Positions 62,390 through 63,725 of a stretch of DNA of 64,000 nt are shown in pieces; position 1 is the stretch's first letter, and each line of letters opens with the position of its first letter. The DNA is from Escherichia coli. Lineage in GTDB: Bacteria > Pseudomonadota > Gammaproteobacteria > Enterobacterales > Enterobacteriaceae. The translations under genes and the position numbers were made by a program. The notes under the pieces were generated by a model. It did not search any database, was not told the origin of the DNA, and saw only the letters and a list, made by a program, of their open reading frames with translations. The DNA is taken from the NCBI RefSeq assembly GCF_003790525.1, contig NZ_CP033633.1. One strand, 5' to 3'.

Positions 62390-62608
62390 ATGAAGCAGCG
62401 CATTACAGTCACCGTCGACAGTGACAGCTATCAGTTTCTCAAGGCATATGATGTCAATATCTCCGGGCTGGTAAGCACCACCCTGCAGAATGAAGCCCGT
62501 CGTCTGCGTGCCGAACGCTGGCAGGCAGAAAATCAGGAAGGGATGGCTGAGGTCGCCCGGTTTATTGAAATGAACGGCTCTTTTGCCGACGAGAACAGGG
62601 ACTGGTGA
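62390..62608 (+). CDS. ccdA: CcdA antitoxin
   Basis: [72 protein letters not shown], near-identical to F-plasmid CcdA from memory. Confidence 0.9.
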
Positions 62609-62609
62609 A

Positions 62610-62915
62610 ATGCAGTTTAAGGTTTACACCTATAAAAGAGAGAGCCGTTATCGTCTGTTTGTGGATGTCCAGAGTGACATTATTGACACGCCCGGGCGAC
62701 GGATGGTGATCCCCCTGGCCAGTGCACGTCTGTTGTCAGATAAGGTCTCCCGTGAGCTTTACCCGGTGGTGCATGTCGGGGATGAAAGCTGGCGCATGAT
62801 GACCACCGATATGGCCAGTGTGCCGGTCTCCGTTATCGGGGAGGAAGTGGCTGATCTCAGCCACCGAGAAAATGACATCAAAAATGCCATTAACCTGATG
62901 TTCTGGGGAATATAA
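62610..62915 (+). CDS. ccdB: CcdB toxin (gyrase poison)
   Basis: [101 protein letters not shown]. Confidence 0.9.
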
Positions 62916-63725
62916 ATGTCAGGCTCCGTTATACACAGCCAGTCTGCAGCCATGGTACCGGCAGTGTATTCTGCCGGACAGTCTGCACAACTTCCTGTTG
63001 CCATTGATTATCCGGCAGCTCTGGCACTCCGCCAGATGTCGATGGTTCATGATGAACTGCCGAAATATCTGCTGGCTCCCGAGGTGAGTGCCCTGCTTCA
63101 TTATGTCCCGGATCTGCGCCGCAAGATGCTGCTGGCCACTCTGTGGAACACCGGCGCGCGTATTAATGAAGCACTAGCGCTGACGCGGGGGGATTTTTCG
63201 CTCACGCCTCCGTATCCGTTTGTGCAGCTGGCCACTCTGAAGCAGCGGACAGAAAAAGCCGCCAGGAGGGCAGGAAGGATGCCCGCCGGTCAGCAGACTC
63301 ACCGTCTGGTTCCGCTCTCCGACGCCTGGTACGTCAGCCAGCTGCAGACGATGGTGGCCACACTGAAAATCCCCATGGAACGGCGTAATAAACGAACAGG
63401 CAGGACAGAGAAAGCGCGGATCTGGGAAGTGACGGACAGAACGGTCAGGACCTGGATTGGGGAGGCGGTTGCCGCCGCTGCTGCTGACGGTGTGACGTTC
63501 TCTGTTCCGGTCACACCACATACGTTCCGCCATTCCTATGCGATGCACATGCTGTATGCCGGTATACCGCTGAAAGTTCTGCAAAGCCTGATGGGACATA
63601 AGTCCATCAGTTCAACGGAAGTCTACACGAAGGTTTTTGCGCTGGATGTGGCTGCCCGGCACCGGGTGCAGTTTGCGATGCCTGAGTCCGATGCGGTCAC
63701 AATGCTGAAAAACAGACATGTATAA
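62916..63725 (+). CDS. resD: ResD-like tyrosine site-specific recombinase (multimer resolvase of the F ccd-resD module)
   Basis: 269 aa; tyrosine-recombinase box HTFRHSYAMHMLYAGIPLKVLQSLMGHKSISSTEVYTKV; immediately downstream of ccdB. Confidence 0.7.
   Translation: MSGSVIHSQSAAMVPAVYSAGQSAQLPVAIDYPAALALRQMSMVHDELPKYLLAPEVSALLHYVPDLRRKMLLATLWNTGARINEALALTRGDFSLTPPYPFVQLATLKQRTEKAARRAGRMPAGQQTHRLVPLSDAWYVSQLQTMVATLKIPMERRNKRTGRTEKARIWEVTDRTVRTWIGEAVAAAAADGVTFSVPVTPHTFRHSYAMHMLYAGIPLKVLQSLMGHKSISSTEVYTKVFALDVAARHRVQFAMPESDAVTMLKNRHV

Follow-up and report, generated by a model that had tools for sequence, protein, structure and literature searches.

An F-family rfsF-ccdAB-resD maintenance cassette in an IncK2/Z-type plasmid of Escherichia coli, probably acquired from a ColBM/ColV-type IncF plasmid

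Introduction

The toxin-antitoxin (TA) operon ccdAB and the resolution system ResD/rfsF are textbook functions of the F plasmid. In F, CcdB traps DNA gyrase by acting on GyrA. The antitoxin CcdA, which neutralizes the toxin or rejuvenates the poisoned complex, is degraded by Lon and needs constant synthesis, and the operon is autorepressed by CcdA-CcdB. By transposon-directed insertion-site sequencing (TraDIS), the ccdA gene of the IncFIA cassette in pEC958 was found to be essential, i.e. protected from insertions, showing that the system is active (PMC4398462), and ResD/rfsF is cited as the dimer-resolution system of F (bioRxiv 10.1101/2024.03.26.585537). Here we describe a locus of this kind on a stretch of 64,000 nucleotides of E. 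coli plasmid DNA (NCBI RefSeq assembly GCF_003790525.1, contig NZ_CP033633.1). The whole stretch is called the window, and positions are counted from its first nucleotide. The genes ccdA, ccdB and resD lie close to its right end, in a plasmid backbone that is not of the F type. A preliminary description, made from the sequence before any database search, had read the locus as F-derived DNA grafted onto an IncI-type plasmid. Following the comparisons reported below, we consider it very likely that the locus is a complete, probably functional F-family maintenance cassette that was imported into an IncK2/Z backbone from a ColBM/ColV-type IncF plasmid. The cassette itself is already known, as near-identical copies (99-99.9%) are present in deposited plasmids of the same lineage.

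The ccdAB-resD genes and their counterparts in F and R64

The three genes are intact, full-length open reading frames (ORFs) on the plus strand, found exactly where the preliminary description had placed them (62390-63725). The antitoxin gene ccdA (62390-62608; 72 aa) matched Pfam PF07362 and the NCBIfam CcdA equivalog profile with 159.5 bits at a cut-off of 100. It is followed on the same strand by the abutting gene ccdB (end at 62608, start at 62610), which extends to 62915 and encodes the gyrase-poison toxin of 101 aa (Pfam PF01845; NCBIfam CcdB equivalog, 214.2 bits, cut-off 147). The third gene, resD (62916-63725), encodes a tyrosine recombinase of 269 aa, the multimer resolvase (Pfam Phage_integrase, 66.7 bits, cut-off 27.1). 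CcdB has the C-terminal Trp-Gly-Ile (WGI), and the recombinase motifs of ResD are intact: GARINE (80), HTFRH (202), GHKS (227) and EVYTK (235).

The view that ccdAB is of the F type was borne out by global alignment to the proteins of F (NC_002483). Identical residues numbered 69 of 72 in CcdA and 100 of 101 in CcdB, where I56V is the sole change, and 256 of 269 in ResD. At the DNA level, 62368-63710 is 94.2% identical to F 46317-47660; the last four to five residues of ResD and the DNA downstream differ. In the RepFIA region of F (45.9-47.7 kb) rfsF core, spacer, ccdA, ccdB and resD follow one another in the same order and the genes abut likewise. F has pifC before and repE/sopABC after the cassette, whereas the window has none of these. 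When the window was compared with the whole of F by blastn, 3.7 kb aligned and ccd-resD was the only stretch reaching at least 90% identity. This comparison found no repE/sop, RepFIB or RepFIC/FII in the 64 kb and no match to the tra genes of F (66-99 kb).

The same alignment to the IncI1 plasmid R64 (NC_005014) covered 8.3 kb, mostly diverged backbone. R64 carries rfsF, an ORF, resD and parA (rfsF to resD at 43.6-45.2 kb), and its upstream pif proteins are identical to those of F. Its core arms match those of the window, and in both plasmids resD lies between accessory genes and partition genes. In R64, however, what stands between rfsF and resD is not ccdAB but an ORF of 138 aa unrelated to it, and R64 resD differs from that of the window over its first ~70 nt. 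Overall, the resD of R64 is 94.4% identical to the window's, which is as close as the resD of F. The earlier identification of a ResD-like recombinase is thus correct, while its use as an F marker is not: F and I plasmids have the ResD/rfsF frame in common, and a resD gene by itself is no evidence of F origin.

The rfsF-type core site and the region upstream of ccdA

Upstream of the genes an rfsF-type core (61974-62001, plus strand) was identified by position and conservation. It reads AGATCCGAAAA-CTCCTG-GTTCCGGATCC, two inverted arms of ~11 bp with a 6-bp centre between them, and so shows the inverted-repeat architecture of a tyrosine-recombinase core site. The window contains a single match to it, with none expected by chance. 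Seven diverse plasmids were aligned over the core, namely F, R64, a Klebsiella FII(K) plasmid, two Enterobacter IncFII plasmids, an E. coli IncFIA/FIB/FIC plasmid and the window. All seven have the same arms, while the centre (CCCCAA in F) and the flanks vary. The core shares its alignment column with R64 nt 43620 and F nt 45922, the positions reported for rfsF in these plasmids (PMC8004404, PMC4398462). In a distant-homology search many alignments began exactly at the core. Such a pile-up of homology breakpoints is expected of a recombination crossover site, and we presume that ResD acts here.

The slot downstream of the core is filled in various ways in the plasmids compared. In the Klebsiella FII(K) and Enterobacter IncFII plasmids it holds ccdAB without resD, and in E. 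coli pN17EC0211 two unrelated ORFs stand ahead of resD-cmi. Immediately upstream of the core a vapBC pair is often found.

The core and ccdA are separated by a diverged, oriV1-like spacer with the ccd promoter/operator region (62002-62389, plus strand). It is collinear with F 45950-46340 at only ~61% identity and is of the same type as the corresponding region in the IncFIA/FIC plasmid pEC14III. Close to ccdA it contains GTATAC (62346-62351), GTGTAC (62358-62363) and a ribosome-binding site GAGGTG (62380-62385); palindromes of the GTATAC type upstream of ccdA are what we take, by analogy with the ccd operon of F, to be the putative operator. A second block (62154-62191, plus strand; CACTTCCGGAAA...AAAATCGGATC) is kept in the window, F and R64 amid the poorly conserved surroundings. 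Two rfsF sites are reported upstream of oriV-1 in RepFIA (PMC4398462), and the block may be the second of these or else a site in the oriV1-like region with an accessory role for ResD. The functional unit comprises rfsF, the spacer with its promoter, ccdA, ccdB and resD, at ~61.97-63.73 kb.

The I-complex backbone

In the left part of the window (1-24.9 kb) lie rci and the shufflon, the pil genes from pilV to pilL, regulators of transfer, RepA, a TA pair and a gene of the ProQ/FinO family. RepA (19686-20558) is of the I-complex type and is preceded by an Rfam PK-repZ pseudoknot (19524-19673, 177.4 bits). Over the pil/shufflon/rep region, identity is 98.5-99.8% with plasmids whose PLSDB/MOB-suite type is IncK2/Z, MOBP and MPF_I. 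The rep region alone is ~99% identical to the IncK2/Z relatives and 96.5% to the IncK2 plasmid pMbl536, whereas the backbone shares only 66-79% identity with IncI1 R64. Judged by this similarity, the backbone is of the I-complex, within which the IncK2/Z grouping has been described (PMC6361801), and probably of subgroup IncK2/Z rather than IncI1; the subgroup is assigned from the typed plasmids, and the typing calls are those of the relatives. The replicon, regulators and thin pilus, first described as IncI-type, are therefore so at the level of the I-complex only.

Two features of this region had been listed as pieces of F and turned out otherwise. The supposed FinO gene (24224-24817, minus strand) is yafB, a native I-complex gene of the ProQ/FinO family. 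Its product contains the ProQ/FinO domain and scored 30.8 bits against the NCBIfam FinO model, the cut-off being 136; tblastn found no match to it in F. The ORF is 84-91% identical to a gene near repZ and a yacAB-type TA pair in IncI-gamma/K1 plasmids, and homologues occupy the same neighbourhood in R64 and pMbl536. The Tn1000-like repeat, taken as F-derived DNA, is a lone terminal inverted repeat of Tn1000 (gamma-delta) with 33 of 35 positions matching (22702-22736, plus strand). It lies close to the backbone, downstream of a Phd/ParE pair, with no transposon body or other Tn1000 DNA.

Relatives of the plasmid and the probable donor

At least ten deposited plasmids (130-170 kb) carry the cassette together with its upstream flank at 99-99.9% identity. 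Chickens are among their sources, and their countries of origin are the USA, China, Pakistan, Laos and Switzerland. Six carriers were checked; all are IncK2/Z, MOBP and MPF_I, and none has an F replicon. The seventh close relative examined, a French plasmid of 192 kb, has the cargo in common and was assigned to IncI-gamma/K1, MPF_I and MOBP. The IncK2/Z plasmids of poultry E. coli, AR_0085 unnamed1 (CP029742; AR_0085 below), pE16-3 (CP119729), pPK8275-145kb, pEF5-18-41_2 and pLH10-b-1-A, belong to the same lineage as the window: to the shared cassette and flank they add a backbone that is 99.2-99.8% identical and cargo in common. They differ from it in cargo order, through IS-mediated inversions and indels (IS, insertion sequence), and at the right border of the cassette. 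In the relatives resD runs on into cmi, cma and cbi, so that the match stops at 63807 and the colicin M genes cmi/cma follow, whereas the window has the left end of an IS1 copy there (63807-64000, plus strand; 99.5-100% identical to its two other IS1 copies). This junction between resD and IS1 was in no record of the plasmid and E. coli genome collections searched. Part of 666-1877 (rci-pilV) did not align to AR_0085, with flanks 99.5-99.9% identical, consistent with another arrangement of the shufflon.

The next-best matches, 98.5% identical over 61473-63807, were to the ColBM-type plasmids pEC14III (KU932028) and pN17S1304-1 (CP082637), which are IncFIA/FIC or IncFIA. The upstream spacer, rfsF core, resD tail and acyltransferase are as in the window and the CcdA and CcdB accessions are identical. 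Unlike the window, both plasmids have F replicons and MPF_F. The ColBM order is acyltransferase, a five-gene sugar-modification cluster (FAD-oxidoreductase to DegT), ccdA, ccdB, resD, cmi, cma, cbi, cba. These plasmids thus keep a 4.6-kb sugar-modification cluster upstream of the cassette and cmi-cma-cbi-cba downstream, while the window is cut by IS elements on both sides. Its acyltransferase segment (60211-61280, plus strand), with a hexapeptide acyltransferase ORF recognized by Pfam domain scan (60530-61012), is 96% identical to pEC14III 3370-4440. Collinearity with pEC14III is then broken between 61280 and 61473, where an IS3-family orfA remnant (61226-61472, minus strand; Pfam HTH_Tnp_1) stands in place of the cluster and marks a deletion of ~4.6 kb. 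Left in the window ahead of IS1 are ~70 bp from the start of DegT, the whole cassette and 82 bp past resD.

In pMbl536, a typical IncK2 plasmid, only ~5 kb separates repA from parA and there is no homology to ccd or resD; a 2026 pan-plasmid survey of IncK2 never mentions ccd. AR_0085, the only relative inspected for this, contains a second, truncated resD (CP029742, 127828-128363) in addition to the full-length gene. This 3' half is 94-96% identical to the resD genes of the window and R64, adjoins the partition (AAA-ATPase) gene of the backbone and has been joined to a promoter and gene start of the colicin type. It looks like the native copy. The RefSeq annotation of EF5-18-41 lists an extra tyrosine recombinase near the same place. 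The single case of AR_0085 suggests that the native resolvase was inactivated in the lineage, leaving the imported, full-length resD as its sole intact copy.

The cargo points in the same direction as the flanks: a resolvase with an iron ABC/MFS (ATP-binding cassette/major facilitator superfamily) operon in the window is ~98% identical to a ColV IncFIB/FIC plasmid of avian pathogenic E. coli (APEC). Together, the flanks collinear with ColBM plasmids, the absence of the cassette from pMbl536 and the ColV-like cargo support import from a ColBM/ColV IncF plasmid into an I-complex plasmid, followed by erosion through IS elements. The preliminary proposal that F-derived DNA was grafted onto an I backbone is upheld in this form, with a ColBM/ColV-type IncF plasmid as the probable donor (98.5% and collinear in pEC14III) rather than F itself (94%). 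Capture by ResD recombination at rfsF was considered as a route and rejected: on the upstream side, donor homology goes on past the core for ~500 bp, as far as 61473, and IS elements form the boundaries.

Neighbouring cargo and mobile elements

The cargo between backbone and cassette is an IS-dense mosaic that also includes elements of the IS66 and IS91 families. Two complete IS3-family copies of 1.3 kb (38454-39767 and 58898-60211) are inverted, 99.9% identical and each equipped with an ALIL frameshift pseudoknot; in relatives they are annotated as IS3 family or IS1203-like. What had been described as IS3-like remnants of F are therefore remnants only in part, and the two complete copies have no DNA similarity to the IS3 of F. 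DNA that is contiguous in pEC14III and AR_0085 is split between these copies (39764-40594, inverted, and 60211-61280), which points to an inversion of ~20 kb between them. This arrangement is shared with pE16-3 but not with AR_0085. IS1414 is present as one copy and two partial copies (28363-29683, 37253-38100 and 42493-43338), and in relatives an astA/EAST1 enterotoxin ORF lies on it. The two further IS1 copies, besides the one beginning at 63807, are at 52109-52877 and 54362-55131.

An autotransporter ORF of 3,498 bp (33601-37098, plus strand; 1165 aa) has the domains Autotransporter, AC_1 and Pertactin, and shares 66.7% DNA identity with an autotransporter gene of F. It is likened by length to aatA, the APEC adhesin gene near eitABCD in pAPEC-O1-ColBM, whose length is equal (PMC2944236). 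A serine resolvase (46871-47461) is followed by the iron-transport operon (47816-51856, plus strand), with genes for a binding protein, permease, ATPase and MFS protein, which resembles eitABCD. Between them lies an inverted repeat end similar to the Tn21 family (47470-47507, eight mismatches), where relatives have IS4321 or IS5075. Stranded in the cargo is 1.5 kb of a nikB relaxase gene of the IncI1 type (56086-57568, within an ORF at 56079-57665 on the minus strand), 98.3% identical to R64. The cargo accordingly holds debris derived from IncI1 as well as IncF-derived DNA, and this piece of nikB probably accounts for the multiple MOBP calls that relatives received. All four TA pairs that had been counted in the 64 kb were found, and all are type II: besides ccdAB these are a Phd/ParE-RelE pair (21505-22040), a ribbon-helix-helix (RHH)/ParE pair (45811-46370, minus strand) and a VapBC pair (57751-58394).

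Discussion

In the reading that we favour, the cassette would have arrived with a DNA block whose source was a ColBM/ColV-type IncF virulence plasmid. The acyltransferase segment would be part of the same block, which IS3-family elements and IS1 would later have trimmed and rearranged. CcdB would poison DNA gyrase unless labile CcdA keeps neutralizing it, so that plasmid-free cells would be killed or arrested (post-segregational killing), and ResD would resolve plasmid multimers at rfsF, leaving the copies separable at division. The cassette is likely to be active because of the protein identity of 95-99%, the intact core and the 99.9% conservation across a geographically wide lineage. We infer the activities of toxin, antitoxin and resolvase in this plasmid, as well as the direction and route of the transfer, from such comparisons.

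Several observations weigh against this reading. R64 natively has rfsF-orf-resD and shares its pif genes with F. The frame is therefore ancestral to F and I plasmids, and only ccdAB and the flanks argue for a donor of the F lineage. The cassette might accordingly have been inherited vertically within the I-complex without any import from IncF. The same gene order beside pif/parA in R64, with a resD as close as that of F, fits this account, and the 3' tail of the window's resD with ~70 bp beyond it resembles the native truncated gene of AR_0085 and not F. We regard it as improbable all the same, since pMbl536 is without ccd and resD, AR_0085 has its native remnant elsewhere, beside the partition gene, besides the full copy, both flanks (acyltransferase and DegT remnant on one side, cmi/cma of the relatives on the other) are 98.5% collinear with IncFIA/FIC ColBM plasmids, and the block is cut by IS elements.

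The weakest link in the case for activity is the diverged promoter region. With so little identity to F between rfsF and ccdA, we assume that promoter and operator work because many IncF plasmids retain this variant. A simple promoter scan was unconvincing, in that it gave no strong sigma-70 match directly ahead of ccdA. These points, and the heavy IS erosion of the surrounding DNA, would suit a hitch-hiking, decayed remnant whose genes look intact and are unexpressed, or unneeded beside three other TA pairs and the partition systems. Such decay seems very improbable to us given three full-length ORFs with catalytic and toxin motifs intact, near-complete conservation in relatives from five countries amid rearranged surroundings, and an upstream variant that IncF plasmids retain. 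It would, moreover, be difficult to maintain a silent ccdA next to an intact ccdB.

Finally, the window represents 64 kb of a plasmid of likely 130-190 kb, and the rest is judged through relatives. That the plasmid is of the F lineage, or an F/I cointegrate, with native ccdAB-resD and an acquired I-type pil region and replicon, could draw on this limited view and on the several cargo genes of IncF ColV/ColBM origin, but is very unlikely when the DNA of the F lineage comes in fragments with IS elements at their borders, ccd-resD alone reaches 90% identity to F, no repE, RepFIB, RepFII or F tra is found, the replicon has the I-complex PK-repZ, and the seven relatives (130-192 kb) are MOBP and MPF_I with an I-complex replicon only. 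The F replicon or tra genes that the preliminary description named as counter-evidence thus came up neither in the window nor in the typing of these relatives.

Import of the cassette from an IncF plasmid leaves room for a further, doubtful idea. The imported rfsF-ccdAB-resD may have replaced the native resolution system, and its CcdA may serve as a shield ('anti-addiction') against ccdAB of nearly the same sequence on ColV/ColBM IncF plasmids in the same cell. If this were true, the IncK2/Z lineage could capture virulence cargo of ColV/ColBM plasmids, such as the eit-like iron transporter and the aatA-like adhesin, and then displace those plasmids in poultry E. coli.

More generally, F, I, FII(K) and related plasmids have the stretch from rfsF to resD in common as a slot whose cargo can be exchanged, and the breakpoints at the rfsF core are useful for annotating plasmid mosaics. 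The value of the present finding is descriptive: a globally distributed IncK2/Z plasmid lineage of poultry appears to have absorbed both maintenance and virulence DNA from ColBM/ColV IncF plasmids.

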